In this document: one piece after another, positions 1-53,576 of the stretch
Numbering within the stretch: position 1 is the stretch's first letter
Layout: each line of letters begins with the position of its first letter
DNA from: Cyanidioschyzon merolae
Taxonomy: Eukaryota
DNA: 64,000 nt
NCBI GenBank assembly: GCA_000091205.1
Contig: AP006493.2
Direction: 5' to 3' (one strand)
The notes under the pieces: generated by a model
What the model saw: the letters and a program-made list of their open reading frames with translations, nothing else
The model's database searches: none
Told to the model about the DNA's origin: nothing
Translations under genes and position numbers: made by a program

Positions 1-592
1 TTCCATCCAGGGAAAGGTTTTTGTTATCAAGAGTTTTGAAAGTGAGACGCATCAGTCACGAAAACTCTTTGCGGAAACCACAGTCTATATTCCGGTCTCG
101 ACGTCCCAGTGCGACTCCAGGACCTGTCTGGGAATGCGGTCGTCAAGATTCTGCTGCTCAAACCAGTGCTCGGCGCAACTTTGTCGCTTTGACTCACCGT
201 CAGATTTCTCTGAACTGAGTGTCAAGTCAGGTTTACGTGCCTGTGAGATAGTGCGTTCAGCATCTGCAAGGTGTCAAGAAACGTTTTGGAGAGCTTTGGA
301 GTATACAATAGAAGAATTTGGCTTTCTTCATACACACAAAGTCACACTCCGGTCGTTCTCAACTGGAGCTGGTGGAGACTCCATTCTACGTTCTTTCTGA
401 AGGTAGCGGTCCGCGTTGTGCTTTTTGAAGGCTCACACGAGAGCTTTCAGATCTACAAAACTTTGCATTGCATGGCCTGTATGTTTTGATGCTCGAGACG
501 GCTGTTTTCAACGACACATGAGCTGTAACCTTGATACGCGTGCTCGCTGTGAGAGACCTAGCGTGGTGCAACCAGGCAGTACCACAAAGTGT

Positions 593-1468
593 ATGGCGAA
601 CTCGCTGCTCTTCCTGTACAGAGTTTTATCGGTCTTTGTTTTGCTCGGTGCAGTAACGTACCTCCGCGTGTTTCAGCACGATCTTTCTTTAATAACTTTC
701 TCATCGCAGACTTTAGTTCTCCTCGCTGTTTCATTGACAACGCTTCATTTGGTAGCGCTGCTTAACTGCCGACGATCGAGGTCGCAGCCCATCATGATAG
801 CCTTATCAAGAGACGTTCATGCAGAGCATCATTTTCCAGAACTCGAGGCGGACGTATCGCCACAGTTCGTGTTGGACGATGTGGAAGAAGGTAGCTCTGG
901 TACGGCGGACACGTCAATTTCGCGGGAAATGGAGCGCTCGAAGACAGTGCATTCGGTGTCGATGCATAATCGGGAAGACTCGGTTTCGATGTGGCAGCAA
1001 TATCCCGCCCATACCCGGTCCGAAGCGCCTTGCTCCAAGTTACCAGCTTTCGTCGAGAGCGTGTTTCTCCTGGCATTGGCAAATTCAATTTTTCTGGATG
1101 CCGTCTGGTGGCTCATATTACGCCCGCGGGGGGAGCCTTCTGCGCCTCGACGGTTTTCGACGTATTTGCTACATGGACCGATTAACGTTATCATGGGTTC
1201 GATGGAAGTGTTGATCGGCACGATCAGAGCTCGTAGAGCAGCTCTGGTTATGGGCTCACTATATCTAGCGCTGTACTTTTTGTTCGCATTCATGTATCAC
1301 CAGGCACGAGGCGAATGGTTATATTTTTTCCTGAACCCTCGCTCACGGAGGAATTGGTTCATTCTAATCGGCCTAGTGAGCTGGTACTACGCCTGCTATG
1401 CGCTGATCTTCCTCGTGGTCGCTGCACGTGACTGGATGAAGGTCCGACTCGCATTGCGCGCAAAATAG
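593..1468 (+). CDS. Hypothetical multi-pass membrane protein. The ORF track runs 416..1468; the likely start is the ATG at 593.
   Basis: A 350 aa ORF with about five long hydrophobic segments, for example LLFLYRVLSVFVLLGAVTYL, LPAFVESVFLLALANSIFLDAVWWLIL and FILIGLVSWYYACYALIFLVVAA. I recognised no family signature. Confidence 0.35.
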   Translation: MANSLLFLYRVLSVFVLLGAVTYLRVFQHDLSLITFSSQTLVLLAVSLTTLHLVALLNCRRSRSQPIMIALSRDVHAEHHFPELEADVSPQFVLDDVEEGSSGTADTSISREMERSKTVHSVSMHNREDSVSMWQQYPAHTRSEAPCSKLPAFVESVFLLALANSIFLDAVWWLILRPRGEPSAPRRFSTYLLHGPINVIMGSMEVLIGTIRARRAALVMGSLYLALYFLFAFMYHQARGEWLYFFLNPRSRRNWFILIGLVSWYYACYALIFLVVAARDWMKVRLALRAK

Positions 1469-1885
1469 CACATCGCAAACGCCACTTGTCCAGGATGCGA
1501 CTTCTGTTCACGTTGCATCGCAGCTGAAGTTTCGGAAAACGCACAACTCCGTCACGAGCGGGTTGAGCCTAACGATCGCTTTTCTGCTCAAGGAAGGAAA
1601 CCGATGCGCAGAGTCCAGCAGCAAGCAGTATACCTAAAGAGCGCTCGCGTGCAAGGAAGGTGACCTTGGCACCTAAAGTAGCGCGCTCTTGAGTTGGCAT
1701 CTTCCGTTACACATCGAATTTATTGTGTGTTGGTTGCTAGCTGGATCGTGCACAGCAGCGAGTCGCTGTTCCAGCACAAAATTTCCGCGGGCAATGAGTA
1801 TTATAACTAGAAATCACAAAACGGGTTCTGAGTACCCGCTCATGCAAAAAGAGAGACTATTGCTTTGGTGATTCCTCTGCAGTTC

Positions 1886-3754
1886 TCAGGAATACTGACC
1901 AAAAGATTGATATGCCTCTCTGGCTAACCGCGCTTGTTTGTCCTGACAATATTCCCTCCAGAGCAGGAAAAGAATGATTCCCCCGAGTAGGATCATCGCT
2001 GAAGCGAGCACAATAATGACACCGATTACGCTGCGAAGATTCCGCTGGGTGTAAAACTCCAGGCGCCACGTATTCGGATTTGAAGGGTCCTGGGGATAGA
2101 TAATAGCAAAAGAGTTCGGCAGCAGATTTGTCCACGAGCGCTGACTACTACCGGCACCGATCGCAATTTCCTGGACATAATTCAGCATCGTGTTCAAACC
2201 AGTGAAACACTGGCATGCCGAAATGAACTGCCGAGAACCCGACTGGGGACACTGCGTGCATGCATAGAGTTGCAACCCGTTGGTCGCTTGGAATGCAACG
2301 ATCGATGTCGAACCGATGGATTCGGTGAAAGGCCGCGGATTATCGTACGGGGATACCGCCGTTTGGACTGCTGTTTCAAGGAAGTTTCGTGTCTGCGAGA
2401 TCGTATTCAACCAGAGTTCAATCCCATCTGATGCACTAATCAACAGATCCTGGCGACCATCCTGATCTGTGTCGTATGCTGCGGCAACAACCGGCTCAGA
2501 CACGTTGTACAAGGCACTGAAGGATTCTTGTGTTTGTAGCTGAAAAGCGAGACTGTTTTTCTGGGCAGTATTCTTGAGAATCACACCAGTGCTGCCGTTC
2601 ATCACGTACAAATCTGGGAATGCATCGTAGTTGTAATCTACAAGCACCATTTGTGCGCTGGGACGGAGAGGCACATTCGAAGCACCAGACGAACTTGATA
2701 TAGCAACAGCCACAGAATTCAGAAGATTCGCAGAGCCATGGAAGTTGCAACGTTGACCATAGCCACCATTACCGTGGTTGTTACTCACGAACGACAGCCC
2801 CCCATTGCTTGTCAGAGCTAGTATGCTGATCGTGCCTGATCCCGTAAAATCCGCGAACAACAGCTGCTCTACCTGAAGTGAACCTCCAAATGGCGTCCAA
2901 ACCTTGCTCGGTGTCGTTGACGAGAGAATATCCCCCGTCCCCGGACTGTACCAGACTGCGATTTGTGGGCCTGATCCTGTGGCGGAGGGAGGCCCTTGTG
3001 GCGGTCCTTCACGAGAGCGCGGTGGCATCGGATTCGGCTGCAACCGGCTGCTGCCGTTGCCATCACTGCACAAAAGAACAAGATCTGGTAGACAGTCGCC
3101 ATTCATGTCAACGAAAGCAGTAATGTTTTTCTCGATGGAACACAGAGCCGGAGTCCACTGCGATAATTGGAAGGTCCCTTTGGCTTTGCGTCTGTTCGTC
3201 AACACAAGGAAGCTCCCATTCCCCTCAGGAACAAGCACATCAGGAAGAAGGTCTCCGTAGCGGGAAAACAGCATTGCAGTGGAAACATTTGCGTTCACAG
3301 CAATGCTCGCGCCGGATGAAAAGTTGCTAGAGTGACTACCGAGCAATAGTGCCGCTGTACCTGCGTTTGTGAAAGCCATGACATCGCTAACGCCATCACC
3401 GTTGAAGTCTGCTGTAATGGCATGTGTCACATTCTCTGTCAATAAAACAGGACTCCCGAAACGATATAGATTGTGGTTCCAGAAAGATACGTATAGCCTG
3501 CCGGTGGTTGGCTCTATGGCGAGAACGTCGATGTACTCATCCGCGTTCAGATCAGCGAGCTTCAGAGGTTGAAGACGGCCAAGTACGTCTAAGCTCACAT
3601 AAGCAGTTGCGTTTGAAAATGCAGCACCATTAGGAAAGCTCGGCGGGCCACGGCTGCCACTCGGACCAAGCAGTGAAGCAGTAGTACCCGAAGAAACCCA
3701 AAGGAAGCAGACTACCAAGAGCGCACTTGCCAACAAATAGTGTGCCGTCAGCAT
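1886..3754 (-). CDS. FG-GAP repeat, integrin-alpha-like type I membrane protein (ITFG1/TIP-like)
   Basis: An N-terminal signal peptide (MLTAHYLLASALLVVCFLWVSSG). Repeated FG-GAP/Ca-binding-like motifs FNGDGVSDVMAF, DMNGDCLPDLVLLC, DYNYDAFPDLYVM and YDTDQDGRQDLLIS. A C-terminal TM helix (VIGVIIVLASAMILLGGIILFLLW) followed by a short tail. Confidence 0.55.
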   Translation of the reverse strand: MLTAHYLLASALLVVCFLWVSSGTTASLLGPSGSRGPPSFPNGAAFSNATAYVSLDVLGRLQPLKLADLNADEYIDVLAIEPTTGRLYVSFWNHNLYRFGSPVLLTENVTHAITADFNGDGVSDVMAFTNAGTAALLLGSHSSNFSSGASIAVNANVSTAMLFSRYGDLLPDVLVPEGNGSFLVLTNRRKAKGTFQLSQWTPALCSIEKNITAFVDMNGDCLPDLVLLCSDGNGSSRLQPNPMPPRSREGPPQGPPSATGSGPQIAVWYSPGTGDILSSTTPSKVWTPFGGSLQVEQLLFADFTGSGTISILALTSNGGLSFVSNNHGNGGYGQRCNFHGSANLLNSVAVAISSSSGASNVPLRPSAQMVLVDYNYDAFPDLYVMNGSTGVILKNTAQKNSLAFQLQTQESFSALYNVSEPVVAAAYDTDQDGRQDLLISASDGIELWLNTISQTRNFLETAVQTAVSPYDNPRPFTESIGSTSIVAFQATNGLQLYACTQCPQSGSRQFISACQCFTGLNTMLNYVQEIAIGAGSSQRSWTNLLPNSFAIIYPQDPSNPNTWRLEFYTQRNLRSVIGVIIVLASAMILLGGIILFLLWREYCQDKQARLAREAYQSFGQYS

Positions 3755-4021
3755 CCAACTGCGCTCACGTATTTTGGCGCTATGCGGGAGTTCAACACAC
3801 TAGTGTGTCCCTAGGAGCTCTATGTATTCCTGATATGACGGGCGTCGATTCTCTGCGTGTCTGAACGCGCCCTCACGAACTTTTAAGATGGCCTTCCTCT
3901 GCGTGCTGAACGTCGTCGCTCGCAGACAGCCGCGGAATTTTTTGATTGACAAAACGTTTTCATGGGCCAGCTTTCGCCAGTTGTGCGCTTTTTCTTTTCT
4001 TTCTTTTTTTGTTTTCTTCTG

Positions 4022-4440
4022 TGCGCAGTGAAGTATCCATCGATCTGTGCCATAATTCCAAGTTACGTTACCCATCCTTCTTCTCCGATATACTGGTCTT
4101 TTCATACGTTCTATCGTGTACCGAGTGCCTGCCATGAGCTCCAGCAATAGCGCATACAGCACCGGTGCTGCCGCTGCACGGAGGCAGAACGGCGTTGCCG
4201 TACCACGGGGAGTATCAACTCGAGGCGTGATTCATTCAACGTGGAATCCGGATTCATAATCATTCTGGGAGCCTGCAAGCTCTGCAGACAGAACTACTGC
4301 CTGCGGCAGCGCGAAGCGATATGTTAGGAGAGAACTACGACCAGGGTGACGCCCAAACGCAGCATACCCGCTCCTAATCCCAGGATAAAGTGGGTTTCGG
4401 ACGAGCTGCTCAGACCTCTTGACAGCAACGGGCACTGGGG
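4022..4440 (-). mobile_element. SINE-like dispersed repeat, copy A of a ~400 bp family. Its T-rich tract on the + strand lies at the left end, which is an A-rich tail at the 3' end of the minus strand.
   Basis: Shares the core ctggtc(g/t)ttt(c)(a/g)tacgttctatcgtg...gcaccggtgctg(c/t)cg...cacgg(a/g)g with copies at 20440-20935, 48290-48700 (opposite orientation) and 53577-53770. A T-rich tract at 3985-4020 adjoins one end. The other end carries box-A/box-B-like strings when read on the minus strand. Confidence 0.5.
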
Positions 4441-5837
4441 AGCATGAAGCACGAGTCTTGTAGACTCTTCCGACTCGCGGGACCTTCCGTCTATAAGGTA
4501 AACTTTCAACAATATTGAAACCTCTTCCCCCTTTCAACGTTCACCTTAGAGGAGGGAAAGAAATTATTATATCGCTGCTAGTTAGTCTAGAGTCTCTGTT
4601 CTTTGTTCTAAGTAGCGCGCTCGGTACGCGCTGCTCCATATCTGAAAGGCATGAGATACAACGAGCTTTTCGCCGTTGAAGGGAAACACGATCCTGACTA
4701 TTCGTTTACTTGTTGTTCTAACATAAAACTTGTATTTGCATTAAAGTCGTAGCAAACTATAGTTTCCAGTTCAATCGTGTTTCAAAGCTCGAGTTAGTGC
4801 ATTCAAGTGATTTTTCGCAGATTCTACCAGAAGCGCTCAAAGTGCGTACGTTTTCAAAAAGATAAAAAAGGAAAGTTATTGAAAAGGAATTGGAGGATCC
4901 CGGAGACCCAGTATCGCCAGCTGGCGGAAATAAACGACAAACGATGCCGAGCCCGGAAGAAGAGGAGAAGATAAAGAAGGAAAAGGGGAGGCCCGACGCC
5001 AAGGGCCGCAAGAAAGACGACAGTACGATGAGACGGTGGTGGAAGCCTGTCTTCTTAAACATGTAAGGGATCCGCACAAGGAAAATTTGCAAGATGCCAT
5101 AAGAATTCGTGTCCAGTTGTACCCCAGGAGTGTTCGTAAGGTTTCTCTAGGACTGATGCATTTGGTGAACGAGATGTATGGCGACGTGACGGACATCAAA
5201 ACAGTCGAGGTTCTGGGAGACTTATTCGACAAGCCCTTTATTCGTCACCTGATGGCTGGCACCGGGGAAGCGTCGAGGAGAAATGAACTAGTGCATGCCC
5301 TCCAGGAAAACTAAGCCAAACTCCGATTCGACGGTACTCGCACTAGGGTTACTCGGATATTTACATCTACAGAGCGATGAAGTACCTCATGGGCCTGAAG
5401 AACCATATGATCGTGAGCCTCAGTCGTTTCGTGATACGCGACGCCTTTGCGCTGTACCCGGGCCTGTCTCGCAAAGGAATATGGGCAATTATCAATGGCA
5501 TCACTAACGATGGTCAGAACGAAGACGAGATCGAATTTGTCGACAAGAAGACATCAAGCAGGAGAAAGAATGAGGATCCTGCAATCCGTGCGGTTATTCA
5601 AGGGCATCGTGCGGTATTGGGGCCGGCGAATCCAGCAGAAAAGATATCAGAGTTGATAAAAGACGAAGAAAGATACCATCGCCTCATCCTTCGGTATTTC
5701 GCGTTTTTGGACCGAGAACTCGAACGCAAGGCAGAGATGAAGCTGAGTAGGGGAAAAATGAAGAGTCGGAGAGACGGAAGGCTGCCCTAATCGTTAAGCG
5801 CTTCACCGTCGTTTCGCTGTGCAACATCAAGTCATAA

Positions 5838-6950
5838 TTTGTGACTATCGACTCCGGACTCCTCTACGGTATCATGAAGGAGATCAGTCCCGAGTTCAAT
5901 GTTAGCAGGGAGGAGTTTACCGGTGAAAACAGGGAGACGCACTGGAAGAACATCTTCAGTTTCAAACGTCTGAACGTGAGCAAGCAGAAGTTCTTCACTG
6001 GGATGATCGAAACCGATGGAGTAGCCATGTGTGTAAACTATCGGCGCTAGAGGACAGATCATCCATTTCCGCCCCCGGTTTCGCCCGTGACGAAGGAAGA
6101 AGAAAAGAAGGAGGCGGATCCTGCGATGCAGAAAGTGCAGGATAACGACTTTTTGGTTGGCGCTCACCCCGGAAACACAAATATCATAACCATCGCTGTA
6201 CCCAGGCGTGCGGAGGATGGTACTGACGGTAACTTGCTTCAGAAAGACATGCGTTTTTTGAGGTTCTCGAGAGCAAGATTCTATCGAGAATCGGGAATCA
6301 TGAATGCAACGAAGAAAATTGAGACATGGAATGCAGGAATGAAGGATCACGTAGAAGCTTTGAGCGAGGTGACGAGCCGCGGAGCGGACTTTACAGCTTT
6401 TCTGAAATTCATGGAAGTTCGTGTTGCCCATTGGGATGCGCTGCCGGAGAAGTATACCAAGCCCCGGTGGGCTCGTCTGCGAATGAATCTGTATTGTGGT
6501 AAGCAGCGGGCGTTCGCGAATTTTTTCAATCAGCTGAGTGCCCTGAAGGAGGACGAGAGCCAAAGGCTCGTAGTGGCGTATGGAGCAGTGCGATGGAAGA
6601 CCCAAAGAGGGTGTACACCAGTTCCAACGACAAGATCGTACAAGGAGTGCGCAAGGCGTTTCGTCACGATACCTATAGATGAGTTCCGAACATCGTACAC
6701 ACACCATGAACTGGGGTGCACACTTCAGAGGGTCGAGATGGAAAAGTGCCAGAGGAGTCCTGAAGATATAAAAAAGTACGGACCGCTGACGGAGGAGCTA
6801 ATGGAAAGGAGAGCGAAAGTTCGAGGATTGCTTGCATTAGTAAGTACAACCATTAATGGCAAGAATCGTTTCGAGTTTGTGAATCGAGACTCTAACGCCG
6901 CTATCAATATATGGAAATGTGCTGTGATGGATCCAAAACCTACGGAGTAG
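5838..6950 (+). pseudogene. TnpB/Fanzor-like (OrfB_IS605 family) RuvC-nuclease relic. A single reading frame carries an in-frame TAG at 6048-6050. The first ATG is at 5874.
   Basis: A C-terminal ...NGKNRFEFVNRDSNAAINI matches the RuvC-III signature RDxNAAxNI of TnpB/Fanzor/Cas12. The preceding [15 protein letters not shown]...C resembles the vdp-yTSq-C zinc-finger/bridge region. [27 protein letters not shown] resembles the segment before RuvC-II, but the glutamate is missing. [17 protein letters not shown] resembles the RuvC-I motif GIDPG with D replaced by H. The frame is closed by TAA at 5835, and the upstream ORFs at 5036-5790 sit in other frames. Confidence 0.55.
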
Positions 6951-7217
6951 ACAAGAGGGGACTTTATTAGACAACCTCTCAAAGTGGATATATATGAAAC
7001 AAAGTTGGAATCAGTAGTGGATGGCCGATCGAAAAGGACGGGAGGCATCTGCACCTCGGTTGCACACGTCTTGTCTAGGGCGGGTTTCTCGCCACTGCTG
7101 TGCACCGCTGGCGTCGTTCGACTTTCGAACGGCGTTGTTGGTGTGCGGTTTTATAAAGTTAACGTAACTGCTATCACTACAGGGAGTTGAACTGCCCGGG
7201 AACCTTAACTTGTTGCA

Positions 7218-8384: not shown

Positions 8385-9590
8385 GTTTGTCTGCTACATG
8401 TTTCATGCAGACAAGACAGACAGTTTAGTGCTCAAAGGGAGCTGTGGAGGATAGCTTTCGTCAACACACAGGCGGGAGCGCAGGTAACCGTCGTAAAGAC
8501 AACTTTCTTGTGAAAAGCACCTGTTTGGGCCGTGTGTAACATGTACGTTTCCAGTTGTTGCATAGGGAGTCGCTGTGAACTGCCCCTTGCGCCGACGAAC
8601 GTCCAGGTGAGGCAAACCCGTCATGTAACTGGACGTCGACCGCCGCGGCAGCGCATCCAACATCGCGATGAAAGTCTGGGACAGACTCGGCAAACGTAGA
8701 CTTCCAGGATCTGCCTACAATCATGCATTAAAACTGGCCTAGAGCAGAAGGCATGTAGCGAAGCCCGGAGAAGAGTCGTGTTTCCTTGGATGGCTACAGA
8801 AAGCGCCAACATATTCGAGCGATTCAAGTTCCGGAAATCAATCTTCCAGCATTCCGGGCCGCGCGCACAGTCGGCATAACGCTTTTTGGGGTTTAGGGCC
8901 GTTTACATGAACCAGGATTGCTCGACTGCGTGATTAACATTGGCGCATAAGGAGGCACACATTATATCTCACGAAGAGCGGTTAAAAATTATTTTCTTGT
9001 GAGGAAATTTAAAAAAGTCTACAGGATCCAGGACACCGGCTTGCGTGATACTTATCGGCATCTGGATCAGCATCCATCTTTCCGCTCACGGCATGGCTTT
9101 TAGCGCATCGAATGCGTCGGTAGGAATATGGAGCAGGAACGAGTCTAAGACTGTATAGAATTAAAAGGAACGAGTCATCTTAGCTTACTCGGGCGTGCAC
9201 ACTACACCAGTGTCAGCATAAAATGGAGCAGTGCCTAGAATGTGGGCGTAGACCGCTAAACTTTGGATCTCTTTCAATTATAATCAACAACGGCCTTGGC
9301 GGGCTATTTCTGCGGCTTATTTCAGTTTCTTTTGTTTATCCTCGGCCTTCAAAATGCTGGTCTCTCTTGATACTCGTTCTCCGTTGTCTGCAGTTATGGT
9401 CCATGGACTGGAGCTGTCGAGTTCGGATTACGCTGTTTTCGGTTGTTGTCGACGCATTCCATGTACAGGAGGAAGTCGCGATCCAACTTTTCCTTCGCAT
9501 TATCATCTTCTTCATGTACAGCCTCTGTGCGCCGTTTGCAACGGTATCACTTGAATCTGGTATCGTGTTCCTCTGGGTCCTTCACACCTA

Positions 9591-11715: not shown

Positions 11716-14287
11716 GGGTCCGGTATATGCTGATTGTTTGAGGCGATTTTTGGAGTAACGAAACCAGCCTTGTCGGAACGGATCGTATCCGAGAGGAGCT
11801 GCTGCGCGAGGGCTCAAACGATGCATACAGGTTCCTGTAGATGGTACATTTGCGCAGTGAACACCGTTTTCCTGGGGCGCATGTACGCCTGCAGAAGATC
11901 CACTTGAAAAATCAGAAGTTATGTACGCGAAGAGCTAACATGCGGAAGAGCAGTTCCGTTGTTTCTCAACCTCTGTGCGTCTGGGACATGCGAACGTTAA
12001 ACTTACTGAGCTTGCGTAAAGTGCCGCATGAAGAGCTGCGAAAATGACAAGACCATGCATACTGTCGTGAGCGCGGTGGACGCGATTGGCCACCTCTGGA
12101 CAATCTGTAGCGGAGTTGGGTGCGCTATCCTGCACTTGTATGGATTAGCACAGCGAACTTGGTGAAAAGGTGTTGTTCTTCAGTGGAAAGGCAGCCGCTT
12201 TACGCTCGCGCAGGGAATTCATCGACGAATCGTGGATGCGGTTCATGTGGTGAAAAGTTCCCGCCGAGAGTGGGAAATGATGATACTTTATGTTTTCGCG
12301 GAAGCTCCATCGAAGGAGAGAGGATTCATGCAGCAGTCGATCATCGATCGAGATCACACAACAGGCATTTGGAGATCGCTTAAAACTACTCAATATGGTT
12401 AACGGCACCAGAGTTTTCCAAAAATGTGCGAGCAAGAAGCAGCGTGATCCTGAAAGGGATAAGAGTAAAAGCCTTTGTGCCGAGCTTCAGGGTGCACTGG
12501 AAGCGATCCACATCGGTTGCATGGCATGTTGTTTAGGAGTTCAGCATCGAGCTCACTGCTACCGGCGACAACTCAGGCTGGATTTGTACTCAAGAGCCGT
12601 CCATAATGTAAACGCTCAATGGAGCGAAACTGTCTCACAACCATAGTGTAAATTAATACCTACCCACAGACGCCACGCAGCCTTTTTGACCAGCCGTATG
12701 CTATCTGTTACAGCTGCTGCTTGTACATCTCCAGCCTGAGAGGCTGCCCCACAAAGTTCGATAGTGTCTGATCCTTGGATCTCGTCTTCAGCAATCCACA
12801 TCGTCTGATGTTGACGGCGGTGTTGAAGTCTCGGTTTTACGGACTACATGCGTTTATTGCATCTGGTTGAGCTCATCAATGCAAGGATTCCCAGAACTCG
12901 CACCCTCTGGCCCACAGCAGCCTCTTCGTCGTCCCGTCGGGCATACACCTTTTTTTCTATGTCCCTTCTTTTTCGCATTCTTCTTTTTCACTTGCTTTTC
13001 GTCGTTAACTGGTCGGCAAGCTGCGGATGTTTTCACATTTTCCGGCAGCCGGCAATGGCGGAGCTCTAGGATGCCTCACTTCAATGCCAGTACCTTTCCC
13101 CTGGATTTTTTATTTCCTCAAATGAAAGCAGTTCTTTACGACCTTAAACGAGAGAGTTTCCAGAGGGAGACGGAATTGCAGAAGAAAGACGAAATGTGTT
13201 CCAGTCTGCCACCGTATACTGACCGCTTCAGCGATTCGCTCTGGAAAGCGACTGTTAAGTTTTGCGACAAAAGACCCTTCTTCGATATGGTCAAATCGTC
13301 GAGTCCACGCAGGAATGAAAAGCAGTTCTCCCCCAGTAGAATCCGCAAATGCTCAAACGCAAGAGGAACCGTGAAATGCAGCGTTGTCCGATAGACGGAC
13401 GTCGCCAGACGGCAGCGGAAAGTGTTTAGTTATTCGAAGATGTGGTTGGTACTGCTGGATGAGCCTTCTCTATGAGTGAAACTGATGCCACCAAATGAAT
13501 CCACTGCAGCGAGAACCGATGATGGCGCCCTTTTCTTAGAGTTCAGTCGAACATTCAACGGGCTACCGCTCCGCGAATTCCCATACATGCTCCGAAATTT
13601 TCGTCCGAAACACTCCTCATAGACTGAAAAAAAACCAACGTGCCGCTGCTTCATATCGATAGAACCTTTCCTGGAACTTTGTTGTAGTAGCGATTTCGGT
13701 AGACGCTGGCCGTGGATGAACTAGGACTCCTGTTTTGCGACTGAATCCCAGTGTTTTCAGCACAATATGAACAAGTTGTTGAGAGACAGAGACGCTCTTG
13801 GTGGCTAATATAGTTTCTTTCAGCTCCCGTAAGGTGATCAACAGCTCGTTTTCTATCTTTGACAGCAAGCAGTTCTCAGTAATATCGGTACTGGGCGCGG
13901 GTTGCATATACGTGTTTCTTTCTGTGCTCCTCAAGCACCTGCGTATTGTTATATCACTGAATTTAAGAAGGAAAACAGTCCTCGTCGCTCTGTTGAGCAA
14001 AGCATATGTCCTGCGAACAATTCGTGTATGGTATATAGAGTGCATTGCATCGTGATTTCGATTTCCTGATATACACTGCGAAATAATATTCTGTCACACT
14101 CAGCGGGGGCGGAATAAAACTCAGCAGAACGTTTATAAGGCTTGCAGATTCAGAAATGGGTTTTATGAAGCACTCTTGACGATGTCACAGACAGTCACTT
14201 TGTTCTCCAGGTTCGCACGGTTGAGCACTCGACATGCACCACAGAGATAATGAGCTAACTAGATACGTCACGAGGTTGCGGTTTGCC

Positions 14288-14866: not shown

Positions 14867-17800
14867 TGCTGCTAAAGAGACCCGAGCGCAAGCTGAAAAG
14901 TGTGTGCCGTCGCATTTATGGCTGCACCGATTGACGTGCGTCGTTACAGAGCGCGTCGCTGGGATCTGCGACTCCTGCCAGCGCTAGGGCATAGATGGCG
15001 TACTATGCCAAGCCATCATCCTACATTCAGTACGCGCAGGGCACCATGAGAAGCTAAAAAACTGCGTATAGAATAAAGGCCTAATATGCGGCCCTATAAT
15101 CCAGCGTGCAGTACGAATAGGGCAGCACGGGAGGCTATCATCCTGTGTAAGTTTGCATGGATTAGCATTTGAAGCGACCGTCCAGCGTGACCAGAGAGCG
15201 CGTTCCGCCGCCAGTACTATACGTAAGCGCATCAAAAGCGCTGCGTGCAGGGCCACCACCCGACTCCATAACGAGGACACTGCCTGTGGCATGGAGTTGT
15301 CGGGAAAAAATGTCTGTCGCTGCGAGGCTGCATTCGCTGCACAGAGCCGGGACAGTCGGGAATGTTGCTCACGTGATTGGCATTTGCGAAACTCGTGTCA
15401 CTGGAACTGGCCTTAACTTCGATTCTATGAAGACAACCTGGGAATGGCGTCGGTGAAGATGTGATCCTCTGGTACGGAATGGAAGCTACTCCAGGTCGCA
15501 TTCTCGGCTTGATGGGCGCCTCAGCCAATAGCGGGAGCCAATGTCGTTCAGAGTCCACTATGCGAGACTGGAGGTGGAGGCTCGAAATCCCATTTTGTGG
15601 GCGTGTGTGCGTTGCAGAAGTACGTTCCTCGAAATTTTCCGGGAAGTATATATACATATATCGAAAAAATGGATGAACAGAACGCCATTACCGTTCATCA
15701 GCTGCAAATGAAAATCGTTCCCTGTGTCTATCTAGGGCGCTCTAATATTTCTGGATGAGTAATCCGTACCGCACCAGTGCGTTGCTTCAGGCGTGCATGC
15801 AATGAATCTCTCCTAGTCACCAAACTATATTATCCAAAGTCTTCCGCTTTCCATGTAATGCGCTCATTGAGTACAACACAACTACATCACACATTCACTC
15901 GACACAAATCTGCTGGACGCGCTCGCACTTCTAGGAATCTACAGATGTTTATCGTGGCGTTCAAGTCTCGACGCGGAAACTGCTTGCACGCTTGGTTGGT
16001 GGTGAAAGCACACTGTAACGAGCCTCGAAACCTCGACTGCATCGACATCTGATGCTCGGAAAGCTTACCCTGCACAAGCTCGTGCATCCGCCTCCATCTC
16101 ACGCGTTTTTTCTCTGCCTGTTTCAGCGTGCACCTGTGCTCAGGATGCGTGTGCATCGTCCTGAGCAAATCGATGGTCATGATGAAGAATCAGTTCTCGC
16201 ACTAGTTGTAAGCTCCAGTCGAAGGAGCAGGACATCAGCATTGGAGTGTTCGCGCATGCTCAGCGCCATCGGCTGCTGCTGTAGGATGCGACTTATCTGT
16301 CAGTCGCTTTCCGACTCATGAGATAGACTGGCGAACGCATGCGTCCCGCCTCCGTACAGCCTGGCCCGCAGGCGGTCCTAACGCGGTCTCGAGTGTTCGT
16401 ACCGTACTTCGCCCGCATGAGTGATCTAGATACCAATGTACGCGCGTCATGAGGCGTCGAGGGGTGCTCCCTCTGTTCGATACGGTACTCAGGGCGTCTA
16501 GAAGGATCCTCACGCCGCATGCCGCTCGTCAATATGCCTCCTGCGGTCCATCATGCCCAACTCTCGATGACGCCCAGCCCCCGAACTGCTGAGCAGCCCG
16601 ATCCGCTTTCCGTTCGGTTCTTTTGGTCGTTTCTTCTCATTCTCAGGTGCGGCGACCGCGAGGAGGCCCTTCAACGCGGGATCCACACGCATCCCAAAGT
16701 GCGCCTCCTGTTCGACTCTATACGAGGGACAATGAGTCTCGCGTGCCCGACTCAGGCGTAGCCATCGGAAAATCTATGCAGATTGATATTCTGTCGGCCC
16801 CCATGGTTCCTCTAAGTTTCTCTCCATTTGCTCCGTGTGGATGAGAATTCTTGGACGCGCTCGCCAGACGCTCTTCACAAAGTTGCCTGTGTGCTTCCTA
16901 TTTGTGCGCAGACACCAGCAGCAGCTCACTGAAAACGCCATACACTACCGAGCTGGTTTGCGGTGATATGGTGGCCATGATCTGACTGTTGGGTACCGCA
17001 TCGAACAGACGCTCAAGGTAACTGGTGCGCTCGGACTCGCGACGGGATTCGGCGCTGCTCTGGCGCGCTTCGTTCAGGGACAGGTGCTGGCGTAAGGTAC
17101 ACGGAACGAAGGCATCGCGCTTCCACCATTATTCGGACGCAATGTCCGTGGGTGCGAATCTGAGAGCTACGCAGTGAGCTCGGACGATCTAGACTCACTA
17201 TCGCTCTGTTCATGACGTCTCCTACGAACTTGCAGCCAACTCGATGTCCTCCGACATTGGCGCCCCGTTGGCCTCCATCAACACCCCAAGAAAGCCTGCC
17301 ACCAATCGTCACTTTTGCGGTCCAGCGAGCAGCTGCCAGATCGCCCCCGGGATGCGTCTCTTGAAGCGCTCGACGTTGGCCGGCAAGCTGGTTCCGTTTT
17401 CGCTTCGCGGTTCGTTTGATGCTTTTCTGTACCAGCGCTGCAGATGTCCCGATCTTCCACGTCGTGCAGCTACTCGTCAAGGTATTCTGCGAAGCGGGTG
17501 AGCAAATCTCTGCTCCTGCAATCAGGCCGCATTCCAGCTCCGGTCCCGATTATCAGTTGCTTTGCCGTGCATAGGTTCGATCGGAATTTCCAGAGGAATC
17601 AGGACAGACGGGAGCCCCGCGACCGAAAGTCGTGCGAGTAGTTGTCTGAGGGGCTGCGTCAAGCCAAGGCACGCAAGATGAGTCTTGCCCGAAACAAGCT
17701 TCGCTTTCCGAATGCCGTCCAGCATCTCGCTTATTGGGGAATACTCTCCGTTGACGTGTTTCAGTAGGGTGGCCTCGACAATGATTTCAGAGTTTGCTGT

Positions 17801-18992: not shown

Positions 18993-20258
18993 TTATATCT
19001 CAAGCATGGACTCCTCCGGTGGAGCCAAATCCTCGGCAACGAAGACGTCATCGTCGAATTCACGAGGCAGTGGAATTTTGGACATTCCTTCTCGAACAAG
19101 AACCTCCAACTGATTCGCAAGCTCGGTGTTATCCCTGAGACGCTGCTCTGCAGCACTGCGACCGTGGGCAAACTGCTCGCCATTAAGGGCATACCATGTG
19201 CCTTTCCGCACAATAATTCCAACATGCTCAGCCGCCTCAAGAAGGCTCCCTATCCTGTCAATGCCCTTGCCGAAAAGAATTTTGACGGACGCCACTCTAA
19301 ACGGCGGAGCAACTTTGTTCTTCGCGACTTTCACTTTGCAAATGATGCCAGAATTATCTTTCAGAGTTTCCTTGCGCCGAATATCGATACGAACCGTGGA
19401 GTAGTATTTGAGTGCGTTTCCTCCCGAGGTGACCTCCGGACTGCCGTAAAATACGCCGACTTTGACCCGCAGCTGATTGAGGAAGATAACTGTGCACTGC
19501 GATTTCGACATCGAGCCTGCAATTTTCCGCAGAGCCTTGGACATCAGTCGTGCTTGCAAGCCCATCTGGTTATCGTACATGTCGCCTTCTATCTCGGCCT
19601 TCGGCACCAATGCAGCCACTGAGTCAACAACAACCAGGTCAACTGCAGCGGATCGCACCAGCTGATCGACTATTTCCAAGGCCATCTCTCCGGTGTCCGG
19701 TTGGGAAACGAGCAAGTCGTCTGTGCAGCAGCCAAGCGCGGCCGCGTACTGCGGATCCAGCGCATGCTCCGCGTCGACGAAAGCCGCGACCCCGCCGCTT
19801 CTTTGAACCTCCGCAATTGCGTGCAGCGCCAGGGTTGTTTTCCCAGAAGACTCAGGTCCGTAGATTTCGACCAGACGACCTTTCGGGTAGCCGCCTCCCA
19901 GCGCAACATCGAGAGTTAACGAGCCAGAAGGTGTCGTTTCCACGCGCATCCGATCGACTTCGCCCAGACGCATGATAGACCCCCGGCCGTGAGTCTTTTC
20001 AATCTGGTCAAGAACCTGCTTCAGTGAATGCAGCTTTGCTGCAGCATCCTCCGAAATGCCGTTCCTGTTTGCAGGAGTGGCCAGTTCGTCCGAACTCGGC
20101 GTGAGTTCTGGTGAGCGACCATCGACTGCCTTTAGCGCAAGCGCTAAAAAGCCGGTGCTCTTGCGCGCAGTGACGCGCCCTCTAGAAACTGGCCCGGTGG
20201 CTCTTTTAAGTGCTTTTCCTCGCACGAAACACGGGTCGCCGGCGAGAGAGATAAACAT
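18993..20258 (-). CDS. recA: RecA recombinase (bacterial type) with an N-terminal presequence, i.e. an organelle-targeted RecA
   Basis: Near-colinear match to canonical RecA: GSIMRLGE, the Walker A motif [42 protein letters not shown] and KNKVAPPF. About 75 aa of basic, Ser/Ala/Arg-rich leader precede the core. Confidence 0.9.
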
Positions 20259-20439: not shown

Positions 20440-20935
20440 CCGCCGGGTTTTTTTTTGCCGATGCCGAAACGCTTTTATAAACCATCGATCCCAGATTGCC
20501 GGATGGATGGATTTTAGCTTTCGGGAAAGCGTCCATCATGCTGCCACACCAAGATCCATGACCTGTTCTCGGATGTAATGGTCTTTTTGTTCGTTCTATC
20601 GTGCACCCAGTACCTGGTTTGCCGCACCCGGCTTAACTCTTATATCTCGCTGGTGCCGATGCATCATGGAGACAGAGCGACTTTGCTGTGCCAGAGAGGG
20701 CATCGGCTAGAGGCGTGTTGCACTCGACACAGGATCGGAGAACACAAGCACTCTGGAAACCTGCAAGCTGTACATATAGCCCTGCTGTCTGTAGCAGCGC
20801 GAAGCTGTATGGTAGGAGTCTACTACGACTAGTGCAACGCCCAGGAAACGCTTTACGACTCCTAGTCCGAGAATAAACTGCGTTTCGAACGAGCTTCTCA
20901 GGTCTCTTCACAGCACTAGGCACTGGGAAACGTAT
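20440..20935 (-). mobile_element. SINE-like dispersed repeat, copy B
   Basis: Colinear with copy A (4022-4440), including ggtc-ttt-tgttcgttctatcgtg and gcaagct...gcagcgcgaagc...ctacgac. A T9 run at 20448-20456. Box-B-like cgttcgaaacg and box-A-like cctagtgctg on the minus strand near 20860-20930. Confidence 0.5.
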
Positions 20936-22247
20936 GTATCACTGGCCCGGAAGAGTCGTCCGGCTGCCTGGAGCTTTCCCCAAGAGCATAAACTATCGAG
21001 AATACGGAAACACTTTCACGTTTTTAACGTTTCCTGTAGTGGAGAAGTGAACTATTTTCGATCTGCCCTATGTGTAGGCCTCTGCCCGGAACATCGAATG
21101 CAGTGCACCGCGTGTATAGCCCTGTTTTAAAGGACACTGAGGAGACAAAAGCGAATGGCAAGTATGGTGTATTGAGCGCTGTCGACCGGCCGGAATGAAA
21201 TTTGAGGTCGAGTGTGGGAGCTATGGAGGGGATTCCTATCGCCAGCTGTTGCAAACTGGCAGCCGTAAGCGTTTCTAGTCAAGCACAGGGGCTCGTTTAT
21301 CGGTCGCTACCACCATAGCGTGAAAGCCTGCTGCAGATTCAAGTAGATACGGATTGAGGACTTGTCACTGGCGTGCGTCTCCACACCCGCTTTTCCAGGA
21401 GATCAGACTTCGTAAAAGAGGGCATTGTTTGGGCATACGAGTGCCGAGTGACTGAATGCGGGACCGCACGCCGTGCTCTCCTGGAGAGACCCTGAGTCTC
21501 AATGGTATCCATTTCGAAAGAACGTTCTGTTCTGGTCTGGAGCGCCCCGAGCGGCGCCCGTTTAGCTGTTGCTTCCGCGTTGGTCGAGACGCGTTTGCGG
21601 TAGTGCGGTCTACTGCTACAGCATCAATGGTATGGTGCTGTCACGCATGCAACTTGGAATCGTTTTAGCGATATTCACCTGAGCGGAAACTTGTCCCACG
21701 CAGAGTGGCCTGGCCATGGATATCGAGCGCAAAAACGCGATACGTCTAGCATGTTGGGCTGCCTTGCGAATTACCAATATTTTCTTGCCGTTTCGTGCCT
21801 CGGCGCTCTCATATAAGCAAATAGCACCCAATGCCTATGTGCGCCCACGCACAGTACGTAGTGATGCGTCCAGCCACACAAGTTGTGGCGACGTGCTGGT
21901 TCCATTTTGGGTAAAGGATCCTCATTGCTTTCCTTGTCTTGAAACATAGGACGTAATATGCGTGGTGCCGTGTCTCCAGAAGCACTCCAGTTCCTGTCAG
22001 CCGAGTATCGCGGTTTTCCTCATCTCAGAACATACGACGCGTGACGCGCTACACCTAGTCCGCTTCAAAGAAGCTTCGTCTTCCATCGTAACGAACGCAT
22101 GATTTTCTCATTCGTTTTGAAATCAATGCTCATGTGGAGATCTTCCACCTAGCCCATACAAAAGCGTTCTCGCTTTTAACAACGGCGAGCAAAAGCATAA
22201 CTGTATCTGTCTAGTCGCCAGAGAAATGGTGGACAGCAGCGAAGGCC

Positions 22248-25055
22248 TCAGCTACCAGAGTCCCGTTTCGTAAGGTCCGCTTTTTCAGATTCTGATTGAT
22301 CCAGTCCACAAGTTTCCATTAGTGAGCCGTCATCGTGTTGCTTCAGAGCGGGACTATGCGAAGATGCGTCATGGAACGGCCGGACTCGCCTGCAAATCAC
22401 TTTCTGGAAAGCTGCCCATATATTCGTATTGTGCGTTTCATGTTCTCTTGGACATGGTCTCTTCTCGGAAAGTTTTTCATGAGCACTGTGCTTGGGGCTT
22501 GTTACTTTTGTCGGAGTCTGTGACGAGGGCGCCGGTGTCATCGAGGCGCCCGGCACTTCGATGCTCAAATCCGTGGGCGCCGCCGAGCTGAGAATCACTT
22601 TGAAGCGTTGGAGAACCTTGTCGGGATCCGCAGAAAGATGAACGACTCTGCTGCGCCGTTCGAAAGGTTTCCGCAGTTTCCTGAGTTCAGCTGTTCTTGC
22701 ATCAGACTCTTGATGACTGAAAGAGGGGTTTCCGGAATCCATTTCTGTCTGCGATACGACATTGCTTGAACCTCGACGGGATACGCTCGAATGACAACTT
22801 TCAGAATCTGATGACGCATCGTCATCAGCAATGAAATCTGTGTCTGTATCGCATTCCAGGGAACTTCCAGAGCAGCTCGAGCTCCCATGTGCAGACTCTT
22901 CATCTGAGGTTGACAGCAAGTCTTCTCCAGAGTCGTCATCTTCCCATTCCATGTCGCTGTCGCAATCATAGTCGATCAGGTCGTCGTCGAGAATCGCAAA
23001 GGGAGCACGGGGGCGAATCTTATGCACTTGTTCCATCAGCGGCCAAGGTCCATGATACGGAGGCCGACTATTCTCATAGAAATGTAAGTAACGATATCCT
23101 GGTCTTACGAACCGCCCGGAGATACATGAGTATGCAGTGATTTGTTTGCGATGCAGTGCTACCCATACTTGATTCAGCAGTGCTTTGGATAGCACCCCAC
23201 CGTCGCCATCCGCTCTTATATGTTGAATTCCCCGTTCGACAAGCTCGACGTCCTCGGAGTTCGAAAATCGGGTTATCGCCTCCTTGCAGATGACTCCACG
23301 CGACCAGCGTTGCAAAAAAACTTGTACAAAATAGCTTTTTCGCGCAAGGCGCAGCTCACGCACGAGTACAGCAATATCCGGCTGTTGATGTGCAGGGGTT
23401 ACAGTTCGGTCCTGCTGCCTAGCACGCGAGGCGGCCACCAAAACATCCATGGCTAAGCTCAGTCGTCGACGAGGGGCGCGCGCGCAGTCAGGGCCCCAGA
23501 TTGTATCCTCCTCGGCAGTACTAGGCACGTTGCGAGCATCCAAAGGCGCTTTTTCCCTCAGAGGAGAGTCGAATTGAAGAGCCAGGGGGCCACAAAAAGT
23601 CACTGTTTTCATCGGCGCTATACTCATAGTGTTTTCCATTTCAGATCTGCGGCGCATGAACCGGAATAAAGTCTTCGCTGATTGTTTTCCATCTTCATTA
23701 CCGATTTGTGATTCAGCGCGATGCGAACGATTTTTACCACGTCGTTTCGCGGATCGCAAGCATGGAGACACCTCCTTGATGCCGTTCTCGGACTCCGCCT
23801 CGTCAGCCTTCATTTCATTGCAACTGCTCTGGTCTGGACCAACGCCTACGTCCTGTTGGAGCTGAGGCGAGAGCGGCTCAGACTCCGGTTTTCGCTTCCT
23901 TGATTTTTCATTACGATCCCGTCTCTGTTCGAGACGCTTTTTCAAACGATCTGCGCGTGAAATGATTGAATCAACGACGGATGACTTTCGCACCAGTGAT
24001 GATGCTTTCGTGTCAAGTGCATGCATAATCAAATCCAAGCAGATATCTATTCGTCTTTGAATATCGATGAACAGAGCCTTGGCCTCCTTCCACGAACCAA
24101 ATGCCACCATACGCGACGAGTTCGTCTCTCTCGGGTTCGATTGCGTTTCCGAGACCAGTGCCGGATCCAGGACATCGAAAAGGAAGACCTGATGGCTGGG
24201 ATTCTGTAGCGCGCTACAGAGTACCTCGAAACATCTGCACTCTTCTGCTGCAAGCTCCACTCCTGGCGATAAATGCGAAAGCTCGGAATGCAGTACGTCA
24301 CCAATCATTCTTTTCATCTTGATATTTCGTTCGAGCACGATACCGCCCGGAAGACATATCATACACTGCTCCATGAGAGTTTTCACATGTCCCACGTCCG
24401 CGCAACGAGCTTCTGCGGCAAATGCCTGTGCTAGTGTCCAGAAAGCGGTTTCCTGGCTGCTCGCACCGGCGACGACACATCCGGAGCCGAATCTCGCAAG
24501 CTCACCGGGAATAGAGCTGATTGATTCCTGATCAACCGGGAACGAAGCCAAAATGGGCGTGCCTTCGGCTTCTATGACACGCCGCGAGCAACTCTTGAGT
24601 TCCTCGACATGCTGAAGCACCTCGGCGCTGTACTTAATAGCAAGTCGCAACATAGCCGGCGGTACCGACTGCCTCAGCGACCGTGAACTCTGTTGATAGT
24701 CGCGAACCTTACGCTCCTCCTCCAAAAGAAGGCGCTCCAGCGGCATGGTGGACGAAGTCGTACTTGCTTCCGTTGTTGAACTGCCCCCGTCGAGCGCGGC
24801 AGAGGCGTCAGAACTGCAGACGACACCCTTCGCGTAAACTTCGCCACTGCTGCTCAGGGTCCCCGTTGTCAACGCCTCCGGATCAGGGGCGCAAGTGCGC
24901 TTCGTGTGGACTGTATGGCACACACTCGGTACCGCTCCCAGCAGTTCATCCTCCATAGCCTTGTCTGGTTCCGAAAAAGTGCGCTTCGGGCGACTACCGC
25001 AATTGGCGCCAGAAAGGTCAGTGCACGCGCGCCCAGGCTCGCTTCCGATCCACAT
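22248..25055 (-). CDS. CHAF1A: Chromatin assembly factor 1 large subunit (CAF-1 p150, CHAF1A/Cac1-like)
   Basis: The conserved C-terminal block LHFYENSRPPYHGPW, followed by the acidic ED region IDYDCDSDMEWEDDDSGEDLLSTSDEE. A Lys/Glu/Arg-rich region (LKKRLEQRRDRNEKSRKRK). 935 aa. Confidence 0.75.
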   Translation of the reverse strand: MWIGSEPGRACTDLSGANCGSRPKRTFSEPDKAMEDELLGAVPSVCHTVHTKRTCAPDPEALTTGTLSSSGEVYAKGVVCSSDASAALDGGSSTTEASTTSSTMPLERLLLEEERKVRDYQQSSRSLRQSVPPAMLRLAIKYSAEVLQHVEELKSCSRRVIEAEGTPILASFPVDQESISSIPGELARFGSGCVVAGASSQETAFWTLAQAFAAEARCADVGHVKTLMEQCMICLPGGIVLERNIKMKRMIGDVLHSELSHLSPGVELAAEECRCFEVLCSALQNPSHQVFLFDVLDPALVSETQSNPRETNSSRMVAFGSWKEAKALFIDIQRRIDICLDLIMHALDTKASSLVRKSSVVDSIISRADRLKKRLEQRRDRNEKSRKRKPESEPLSPQLQQDVGVGPDQSSCNEMKADEAESENGIKEVSPCLRSAKRRGKNRSHRAESQIGNEDGKQSAKTLFRFMRRRSEMENTMSIAPMKTVTFCGPLALQFDSPLREKAPLDARNVPSTAEEDTIWGPDCARAPRRRLSLAMDVLVAASRARQQDRTVTPAHQQPDIAVLVRELRLARKSYFVQVFLQRWSRGVICKEAITRFSNSEDVELVERGIQHIRADGDGGVLSKALLNQVWVALHRKQITAYSCISGRFVRPGYRYLHFYENSRPPYHGPWPLMEQVHKIRPRAPFAILDDDLIDYDCDSDMEWEDDDSGEDLLSTSDEESAHGSSSCSGSSLECDTDTDFIADDDASSDSESCHSSVSRRGSSNVVSQTEMDSGNPSFSHQESDARTAELRKLRKPFERRSRVVHLSADPDKVLQRFKVILSSAAPTDLSIEVPGASMTPAPSSQTPTKVTSPKHSAHEKLSEKRPCPREHETHNTNIWAAFQKVICRRVRPFHDASSHSPALKQHDDGSLMETCGLDQSESEKADLTKRDSGS

Positions 25056-34335: not shown

Positions 34336-34895
34336 TCGATGAGAGCAATATACATAGTGCAGAAATCGATTCTACACGATTCTCATCGGTGCGTTCGGGG
34401 CGAAACCCACACATCATGGCACCGGATGCACACTGCAACAGGCCGAGAAGAAGAGCTTGAAACCGAGCCGACTGCACGAGATGGTACGCTGCAATTTGGT
34501 CGAACGTCACATGGCGAGGCTACCGATGGCTGAAGCCTTGCACGTCTGTGATTCACTCTGCAACGGTGCGCGCGCAGACGTGCTGCACCGAGTCTTGAAC
34601 GACTTGTGAAACAGTCCAAGATATCTGGTGCCTCTGCGGCGTCCAGTGGATTTGTGTCGAACGAACGCTCATGGTAATCGTTTAGCGCACAGCGTAGGCA
34701 TTGGCTGAACGGCAGAAGACTTTCGATTGAGAAACCAGTCATCAGGAGCCAAACGATACGATGTTCGCCCGATGCAAATCACTGATGTGGAAAGAGATGG
34801 CAATCTCAAAGGGCTAGAGCGCCGTATATCGAGACTGTGATCGTTTTCCCATGGCAACTGCTTAACGATAGTGTTATTCGACTATTCGATGTTCC
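34336..34895. repeat. Left arm of a ~560 bp inverted repeat whose partner is at 43128-43688
   Basis: The reverse complement of 34336-34895 matches 43128-43688 base-for-base apart from a few SNPs. ORF translations in the two arms are identical except at 3 residues. Confidence 0.9.
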
Positions 34896-48700: not shown

Positions 48701-48845
48701 GAGAACGCTGGCCTATGGAAACGTTTTGCCAATGGAAAAAAATCCGACTCGTATGCAATCGCGAACGTCGCGAAAGCAGCTCCTAGAAGGATTCTTTCTG
48801 TGGCAGCAGCGGAGCTTGGTGGACGGCAGGTGTTCGCGGTGTCGC

Positions 48846-53476: not shown

Positions 53477-53576
53477 GCAGACGGCTAACAGCTGAACCCC
53501 GATCTATAACGTTTCGATGAGAATGTTTCTTATTTGACAAAAATCTTTACACAAGCCAGCGTTCCCCGATTGTGTG

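Follow-up and report, generated by a model that had tools for sequence, protein, structure and literature searches.

Which kind of mobile element left the dispersed repeat found at positions 4022-4440 of a 64,000-nucleotide stretch of the Cyanidioschyzon merolae genome (GenBank GCA_000091205.1, contig AP006493.2; this whole stretch is hereafter called the window)? An earlier note, made from the letters of the sequence, had proposed a ~400-bp family resembling a short interspersed nuclear element (SINE), with an A-rich tail and a tRNA-derived head, or else another non-autonomous retroposon. The answer that we arrive at is a different one: rather than a new SINE family, the repeat is one already catalogued in C. 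merolae, and its copies are very probably the 5'-truncated 3' ends of a retrotransposon without long terminal repeats (non-LTR), of the long interspersed nuclear element (LINE) type, made by target-primed reverse transcription.

The window is part of chromosome 11 of strain 10D (852,849-bp record), to whose proteins seven of its long open reading frames (ORFs) are identical. C. merolae is a red alga with a very compact, nearly intron-free genome, and ORF tools of bacterial style could therefore be used on the window.

Repeat copies in the window and their match to a catalogued element

By sequence, the repeat is already known: it corresponds to TE-N2_CMe and to the head of CMe-1A. Bao & Jurka 2013 (Mob DNA 4:12, PMC3627910) describe CMe-1A as a C. 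merolae Fanzor1 element (~150 copies, 3169-bp consensus, without terminal inverted repeats, target-site duplications given as undetermined) and report that its 5' 635 bp are 95% identical to the whole of TE-N2_CMe (~70 copies); for both, the class is given as unknown. The equivalence of TE-N2_CMe with CMe-1A positions 1-635 was taken from that paper, and all matches given here were computed against its CMe-1A consensus (supplementary file 2; 3169 bp). The core string ctggtcgtttcgtacgttctatcgtg, which the earlier note had singled out, lies in this consensus at ~125-150.

The family of four copies recognized previously (copies 1 to 4) is real, with pairwise E values of 1e-31 to 1e-64: compared by blastn, copy 1 is 79.6% identical to copy 4 over 280 bp (E = 1.6e-64), 68% identical to copy 2 over 483 bp (E = 2e-43) and 76% identical to copy 3 over 184 bp (E = 7e-31). 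The repeat families returned by separate repeat finding in the window agree with the blastn results, and the core strings first quoted are present. A profile search (nhmmer, with a profile built from the four copies) yielded two further degenerate copies: copy 5, whose core motif is no longer intact in the alignment, and a doubtful sixth fragment (Table 1). As had been said, the copies are intergenic: none of them overlaps with long ORFs that can be ascribed to annotated genes.

The extents given for the four loci needed revision (Table 1); the segment 48290-48451, for instance, had been counted as part of copy 4 and is unrelated sequence. Nor do the copies form a single ~400-bp unit: a module of ~260-290 bp (module A) is common to all window copies, and the next ~350 bp (module B), containing gcagcgcgaagc and the promoter-like box strings considered below, occur only in copies 1 and 2. 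As for the A/T-rich tract thought to lie at one common end, a terminal A-run does exist, but it is short (3938-3943 in copy 1, where it reads as a T-run; 20448-20456 in copy 2; 48735-48741 in copy 4). The long A-rich tract that had been taken for the end (the T-run 3985-4020 in copy 1; 48655-48700 in copy 4) is internal, variable and lacking in copies 2 and 3, and homology extends ~50 bp past it.

Relative to the consensus, copy 4 is a clean 290-bp insertion matching positions 84-257 with 80% identity. Copy 2, of ~600 bp, is 5'-truncated near consensus 590: window positions 20459-21032 correspond to consensus 1-575 (75%), and the profile match reaches 21049. Copies 3 and 5 are short or decayed; copy 3 ends at consensus 250, where it adjoins an oppositely oriented, internally deleted Fanzor derivative (53802-54361). 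Copy 1 runs uninterrupted to 7134, making up one 3.2-kb element, and its first ~90 bp represent a tail type, alpha, common to copies 4 and 3.

A common 3' end, variable 5' ends and target-site duplications

A metagenome scan with the conserved core TGGTCNTTTNNTNCGTNCTATCGTG gave at least 120 loci, all from hot-spring communities containing C. merolae-like algae. These were reduced to 50 non-redundant copies, including four that equal the window's own loci (the locus of copy 2 was recovered as L012, L085 and L119); the lengths, ends and target-site duplication counts below refer to these 50 copies. The abundance throughout the genome that had been anticipated from four copies in 64 kb is borne out by at least 43-50 distinct loci in the scan, as well as by the published copy numbers given above. 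The repeat is not a local segmental duplication.

On the strand that is sense for the LINE, which is opposite to the published consensus, every copy ends in one tail, ...AAACGTTTTGTCAATGAAAAAAA. Read along the published consensus, conservation sets in sharply at the T-run TTTTTTTTCATTGACAAAACG... and fades at differing points on the far side. The terminal A-run comprises 6-9 nt. Of 37 copies, 26 have a T directly behind it, and 20 have a C at the second position; the junction of copy 4, an A-run and then TC(G), is typical for the family.

Exact duplications of 11-18 bp abutting the A-run were present in 10 of the 50 copies, compared to 0.66% in a control with mismatched flanks (threshold: an exact repeat of at least 11 bp abutting the A-run). 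The layout of the junctions on the LINE-sense strand is duplication, unit, A-run, duplication, of which copy 4, with its 9-bp repeat, is one case; overall, the duplications vary in length between 9 and 18 bp. Flanking duplications of this kind were among the signs that the earlier note had asked for, and together with the terminal A-run they uphold its assignment of the repeat to the retroposons.

The 5' ends, by contrast with the single 3' end, are variable. Measured from the A-run, 12/50 copies are at most 190 nt long, 23/50 measure 267-301 nt, two ~400 nt and five 540-754 nt, and the remaining class (8/50) extends from 0.86 kb to at least 3.7 kb, bounded by contig ends. Besides the cluster at 267-301 nt, 5' ends thus occur at 166-189, 228, ~400 and 540-770 nt and beyond 0.86 kb. 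No copy among the 50 ends between consensus positions 663 and 2053. Judged by eye, the ends of the unit (CCTCGAGCCGACGCC... on one side, ...GTCAATGAAAAAAA on the other) do not form an inverted pair, and comparison of 30 nt from each end of the 290-bp unit reveals no terminal inverted repeats, contrary to what a miniature inverted-repeat transposable element (MITE), the alternative named at the outset, would display. A hairpin conserved in the RNA of the tail was looked for with RNAalifold on 50 tails, which returned no consensus structure.

Longer copies are contiguous with a reverse transcriptase ORF

Among the matches listed, ~20 loci extend upstream into ORFs with RVT_1 and a FADD box. The ORFs of L046 and L108 match Pfam RVT_1 at E = 2.4e-23 and 1.3e-13, respectively, and lie on the same strand as the repeat unit, 0.4-2.3 kb upstream of it. 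Two C. merolae proteins annotated as 'retroelement, alive', BAM80398.1 and BAM80536.1, share 82-84% identity with a stitched reverse-transcriptase query, and BAM80536.1 is encoded on the same chromosome as the window; the ORFs upstream of the unit are in this respect like the C. merolae non-LTR elements, of which Nozaki 2007 (PMC1955436) reported 26 in the genome.

The connection between the ORF and the repeat is seen in a 771-nt copy (L098), which has a 12-bp duplication at both sides and begins in the ORF2 C-terminal motif ETLTHLLLQCPRW. Its reading frame aligns to copy 1 (4509-4114, minus strand; 39% over 140 amino acids, E = 2.5e-13), and the stop codon of this frame falls in the most conserved core, CACGATAG. 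Because the frame aligns to copy 1, modules B and A are, as judged from this comparison, the remnant of the C-terminal tail of ORF2 plus the 3' untranslated region (UTR). The same homology accounts for an apparent small membrane-protein family, a candidate suggested by seemingly synonymous changes in the hydrophobic stretch ETHFILGLGAGMLRLGVTLVVVLS: stops and frameshifts between copies led us to reject it. In the window itself, no remnants of a reverse transcriptase were found.

Truncated LINE tails or an independent SINE

The tRNA-derived head on which the initial proposal of a SINE rested is not supported. ARAGORN reports 0 tRNA in the window and Rfam 0 matches at its gathering thresholds; at E<=10, Rfam finds no tRNA, 5S or 7SL similarity in copies 4 and 2, only one chance-level match each, to unrelated families. 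The strings that had been likened to box A and box B of an internal promoter occur as quoted only in copy 2. Copy 1 has cccgttgctg and cgtccgaaacc at the corresponding places, and the family consensus differs again. The strings are internal to the 635-nt unit, at a depth of ~190 nt, and fall in the stretch homologous to the ORF2 C-terminal tail. What stands of the initial proposal is the retroposon kind; the tRNA head, the position of the tail and the size of the unit do not.

The repeat could in principle be a separate non-autonomous unit of ~290 bp (and/or 635 bp) with its own internal promoter, which would have borrowed the LINE tail in order to be mobilized in trans. SINEs sharing a LINE tail are a well-known arrangement, and the 5' ends do cluster, 17/50 copies beginning at consensus 248-266; moreover, independent insertions with different target-site duplications start within ~5 nt of CCTCGAGCCGACGCC, and short units outnumber long ones. 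However, both at the cluster point and past it the unit is colinear with LINE copies reaching ORF2 and the reverse transcriptase, there are many other copy lengths (166-189, 228, ~400 and 540-770 nt), no similarity to tRNA, 5S or 7SL was detected even at E<=10, and the box strings, besides not being conserved, belong to module B, which the 290-bp class lacks. We consider a true SINE unlikely. The repeat does share several traits with tRNA SINEs that carry LINE-derived tails, being short, non-coding and dispersed, with a LINE-type tail and A-run, target-site duplications and mobilization that would depend on LINE machinery; it differs from them in having neither a tRNA, 5S or 7SL head nor conserved A and B boxes, in its variable 5' ends and in its colinearity with a LINE. 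The literature yielded no paper classifying TE-N2_CMe or describing a C. merolae SINE.

The contiguity of the longer copies with a reverse-transcriptase ORF is the reason for preferring truncated LINE tails to an independent SINE transcribed by RNA polymerase III, and this contiguity, the common 3' end, the target-site duplications and the variable 5' ends together carry the explanation by truncation. The insertions would have arisen as follows. The RNA of the element would end in ...AAACGTTTTGTCAATG followed by a short A-run. A nuclease of the element would nick the target, preferring sites at which the A-run is then followed by TC(G), and the nicked DNA end would prime reverse transcription from the 3' end of the RNA. 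The enzyme would mostly fall off early, so that most copies would be 5'-truncated and dead on arrival, 170-770 bp long with a cluster near 270-290 bp, all of them keeping one 3' end and flanked by duplications of 9-18 bp. On the LINE-sense strand, the first 100-450 nt of such copies would be what remains of the ORF2 C-terminal tail, and the rest 3' UTR. An APE-like type may be proposed for the nuclease on the basis of the N-terminal motif IASWNICGI, seen in the single longest copy, L030, which is damaged.

Truncated copies of LINEs such as L1 have a fixed 3' end and a variable 5' truncation, and there are many more fragments than full-length elements. The C. merolae repeat resembles these 'dead-on-arrival' copies in all these features and in the variable length of its duplications. 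It differs from truncated L1 in its short A-run (6-9 nt), its strong preference for an A-run|TC(G) junction and a bias to the 5' side of genes, to which we return below.

Several points weigh against the explanation by truncated LINE tails. Plain random truncation would not predict so sharp an excess of 5' ends at 267-301 nt, which could mark a separate short master element; the cluster near 270-290 nt could be due either to a truncation hot spot or to a short master RNA. No target-site duplications were found for copies 1, 2, 3 and 5, even with mismatches allowed; copies diverged by ~20-25% would often have lost theirs. The metagenome loci did not yield an assembled full-length LINE whose endonuclease domain is intact. 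Finally, the metagenome contigs come from C. merolae-like populations, and some loci counted as distinct may be orthologues from different strains.

Table 1. Repeat copies and associated features of the window
Feature	Positions	Strand	Description
Copy 1, LINE-tail-derived segment, ~624 bp	3936-4559	- (LINE sense)	CMe-1A consensus 1 to ~635 (TE-N2_CMe)
Fanzor1 (TnpB-like) unit linked to copy 1	4560-7134	+	blastn to consensus; ORF frameshifted, coding remnants 4878-7043
Copy 2, solitary TE-N2_CMe-type copy, ~600 bp	20448-21049	- (LINE sense)	beta-type tail; terminal A-run is T9 at 20448-20456
Copy 3, LINE tail of ~256 bp, A-run decayed	53524-53779	- (LINE sense)	53535-53779 match consensus 4-250, 74%
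Copy 4, complete short retroposed unit, 290 bp	48452-48741	+ (LINE sense)	starts ATCCTCGAGCCGACGCC, ends GCCAATGGAAAAAA
Copy 4, upstream target-site duplication ATCCGACTC	48443-48451	+	exact 9-bp repeat of 48742-48750, abuts the unit
Copy 4, downstream target-site duplication ATCCGACTC	48742-48750	+	straight after the terminal A-run 48735-48741
Copy 5, old degenerate LINE tail upstream of the eIF-2B alpha gene	30633-30899	-	nhmmer E = 2.2e-8, model positions 9-255
Possible sixth fragment, very degenerate, doubtful (low confidence)	9012-9088	-	nhmmer E = 0.0057 only
CMK056C	1886-3754	-	residue-for-residue match to C. merolae 10D protein
Chloroplast RecA	18993-20258	-	residue-for-residue match to C. 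merolae 10D protein
CMK062C	22248-25055	-	residue-for-residue match to C. merolae 10D protein

CMe-1A as a probable composite of an antisense LINE fragment and a Fanzor1 unit

Copy 1 differs from the other copies in being part of a larger element. The element 3936-7134, which occupies the whole space from CMK056C to the GGPP synthase gene, is a full-length but frameshifted Fanzor1 CMe-1A: window positions 4057-7134 match consensus 90-3169 with 85% identity (blastn), and in a translated self-comparison copy 1 forms one extremity of a longer repeat whose ORF, at ~4.9-7.0 kb, is broken. The published CMe-1 Fanzor1 protein aligns to 4878-7043 by tblastn (amino acids 1-723, 60-82% identity); because it does so in several frames, the Fanzor copy linked to copy 1 is a pseudogene. 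Its ORF has more than 281 homologues of 65-85% identity, the longer of which carry TnpB/Fanzor RuvC-like motifs including NRDFNAAINIRRC. No family of the Pfam library used matched the Fanzor ORFs or a consensus protein, and for the identification we rely on the published CMe-1 protein and the visible RuvC-type motifs; homologues bear the precomputed tag PF26935.1. The 3' end bears a hairpin at ~7113-7131 (CGTTCGA-CTT-TCGAACG in the window, CGTTTTTC-TTTT-GAAAGGCG in the consensus): both arms differ from the consensus with pairing kept, and homology between copies stops a few bases beyond. This is where a guide-RNA scaffold or the right end of the transposon is expected.

The physical linkage of copy 1 to a full-length Fanzor1 invites another explanation, namely that the repeat is the terminal region, the left end, of this DNA transposon and that the solitary copies are deletion derivatives moved as DNA, a notion in keeping with the orientation used in Repbase. 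Bao & Jurka treat TE-N2_CMe as sharing the 5' end of CMe-1A, and the far end of CMe-1A is sharp, at 3169, with the hairpin. Yet variable duplications of 9-18 bp and an A-run are unexpected for HUH-type or IS605-like elements and for MITEs, and there are no terminal inverted repeats. Most loci carry the unit without Fanzor sequence, and in six loci the unit abuts Fanzor position 648 in inverted orientation. As to the ends, no copies terminate at consensus 663-2053, and contiguity with a reverse transcriptase was observed in ~20 loci. The target-site duplications and this contiguity largely refute the explanation by a DNA transposon, which we regard as very improbable.

Of three related candidates, two were rejected. 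One was that copy 3 had arisen by internal deletion, which would have brought the left and right ends of Fanzor together, but the adjacent 3' module (53802-53993) is oppositely oriented. The other, a nested series with the fixed end as common anchor, produced by rolling-circle or one-ended DNA transposition, gave way to 5' truncation in view of the duplications and the A-run. The third, retroposition of the whole of CMe-1A as an antisense RNA with a LINE tail, is conceivable but unsupported: no ends lie at 663-2053, and no duplication is present at the two full-length copies examined.

Under the explanation by truncated LINE tails, the catalogue entries are to be read anew. TE-N2_CMe, whose class had been published as unknown, becomes a LINE 3' fragment of which the antisense strand was catalogued. 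The A-run, the target-site duplications, the 5' truncation and the reverse-transcriptase contiguity all appear on the opposite strand to that published, and the commonest form in our sample is one of ~170-300 bp rather than the published unit. The CMe-1A consensus is a composite, made up of an antisense LINE fragment (the first 635 bp) and the Fanzor unit proper (~648-3169); that the two parts are separable is suggested by the absence of Fanzor sequence from most LINE tails and by the six loci inverted at position 648.

Nozaki 2007 (PMC1955436) and Mikulski 2017 (PMC5405695) describe a 'WSV repeat' of 253 copies and ~3.2 kb with a WSV486-like truncated ORF. This is presumably CMe-1A, by its size, its high copy number and an ORF related to white spot syndrome virus, a virus in which a Fanzor1 is listed (PMC3627910). 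Within the window, copy 1 alone is part of such an element, and copies 2 to 5 are solitary LINE tails. With ~150 copies of CMe-1A, and 'WSV repeats' amounting to roughly 5% of the genome, the composite nature of the consensus matters when the ends of the element, its guide RNA or its promoter are sought. The published class I count is affected as well: the 26 elements of Nozaki 2007 (PMC1955436) were counted via reverse-transcriptase coding regions, which leaves short 3' fragments uncounted, and our results suggest that this number greatly understates the LINE-derived DNA of C. merolae.

Other Fanzor sequences were noted in the window. Two copies of an internally deleted derivative lie at 12667-13115 and 53802-54361, in minus orientation relative to the consensus, and consist of consensus ~790-969 joined to ~2840-3088; in the one beside copy 3, 53993-53802 correspond to consensus 2895-3088 and 54361-54176 to 789-969. 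The derivative recurs in at least 10 metagenome loci (e.g. L006, L007, L036, L052, L084 and L107) and looks like a non-autonomous subfamily keeping the 5' leader and the 3' end. Divergent Fanzor-like ORF remnants at 15893-17562 (minus strand), 43339-44388 (minus strand) and 34349-34684 (plus strand) have 26-36% amino acid identity to CMe-1, so that the window also contains a second lineage of Fanzor, an older one. The divergent Fanzor-like 3' fragment lies in the arms of a 561-bp inverted repeat, 99% identical between 34335-34895 and 43128-43688, that encloses 8.2 kb and three genes, including those for an aquaporin and an XRN1-like protein. The identity of the arms implies a recent duplication or gene conversion, and the arrangement could mediate inversion.

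Position of the copies relative to genes and to the Fanzor boundary

For each of the five window copies, a gene of the same orientation has its start codon 16-192 bp downstream of the A-run end. The position of the insertions was also assessed in the metagenomes, where removal of duplicates by flank left 43 loci, 38 of them informative, with ORFs as a crude proxy for genes. An ORF of at least 200 amino acids in the same sense starts at most 400 bp beyond the A-run in 19/38 loci (50%), compared to 12.3% of random non-ORF positions on the same contigs; an ORF end lies within this distance in two loci (5%), compared to 12.7% of such positions, and 17/38 are not near a start codon. The bias to the 5' side of genes looks real, and could reflect either a target preference or differential retention. 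If confirmed against the actual gene annotation, it would be of some interest as to how a very compact genome tolerates retrotransposons.

Such a distribution (5/5 and 19/38 against 12% at random) might also be expected if the repeat were no mobile element but a selectively maintained promoter or 5'-UTR module in front of genes. The duplications, the truncation series and the reverse-transcriptase contiguity show, however, how the copies originated; their divergence amounts to 15-30%, indels are present and A-runs have decayed, and 17/38 have no start codon nearby. We find a selected, non-mobile module scarcely credible, the exaptation of individual copies as promoter or 5' UTR being another matter, which may have occurred.

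In six loci (L010, L030, L035, L088, L115 and L123), the A-run of the LINE abuts Fanzor position ~648 (…AAAAAAA|ATCGCGCTCGG…), with the tail inverted compared to CMe-1A. These loci comprise two tail subtypes and LINE lengths from ~400 nt to >3.7 kb, in a sample biased by the choice of loci via the LINE core. The boundary at ~648 is the same joint as that of the antisense LINE fragment in CMe-1A, which points to recurrent insertion at one site or to a preferred joint.

A more far-reaching proposal would cover both observations, and we put it forward as doubtful: that the C. merolae LINE is targeted, inserting preferentially at A|TC(G) sites located 10-400 bp in front of starts in the same orientation and repeatedly at position ~648 of Fanzor1, in both orientations and with two tail types, CMe-1A being the resulting chimera. 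Were this true and functional, two mobile systems would be connected in a genome that is among the smallest of free-living eukaryotes. The links might be Fanzor breaks seeding LINE insertion, LINE machinery spreading Fanzor, and LINE tails serving as promoters or 5' UTRs.

Other repeats in the window

Further dispersed modules, also intergenic, were recognized by translated comparison (35-50% identity) at 9.2-10.5, 17.7-18.5, 25.26-25.62, 40.0-40.8 and 46.0-47.9 kb. They match neither CMe-1A nor the LINE tail, and repeat debris is found in nearly every intergenic gap of the window. A tandem array of a different nature occupies 62954-63590 and may pass the end of the window: it consists of 4.2 copies of a 153-bp unit (51 codons; 91% matches) that encodes a cysteine-rich motif of the type C-x-A-C-x-x-G-x-Y, and probably belongs to an ordinary gene for a repeat-containing surface protein, cut by the window end.

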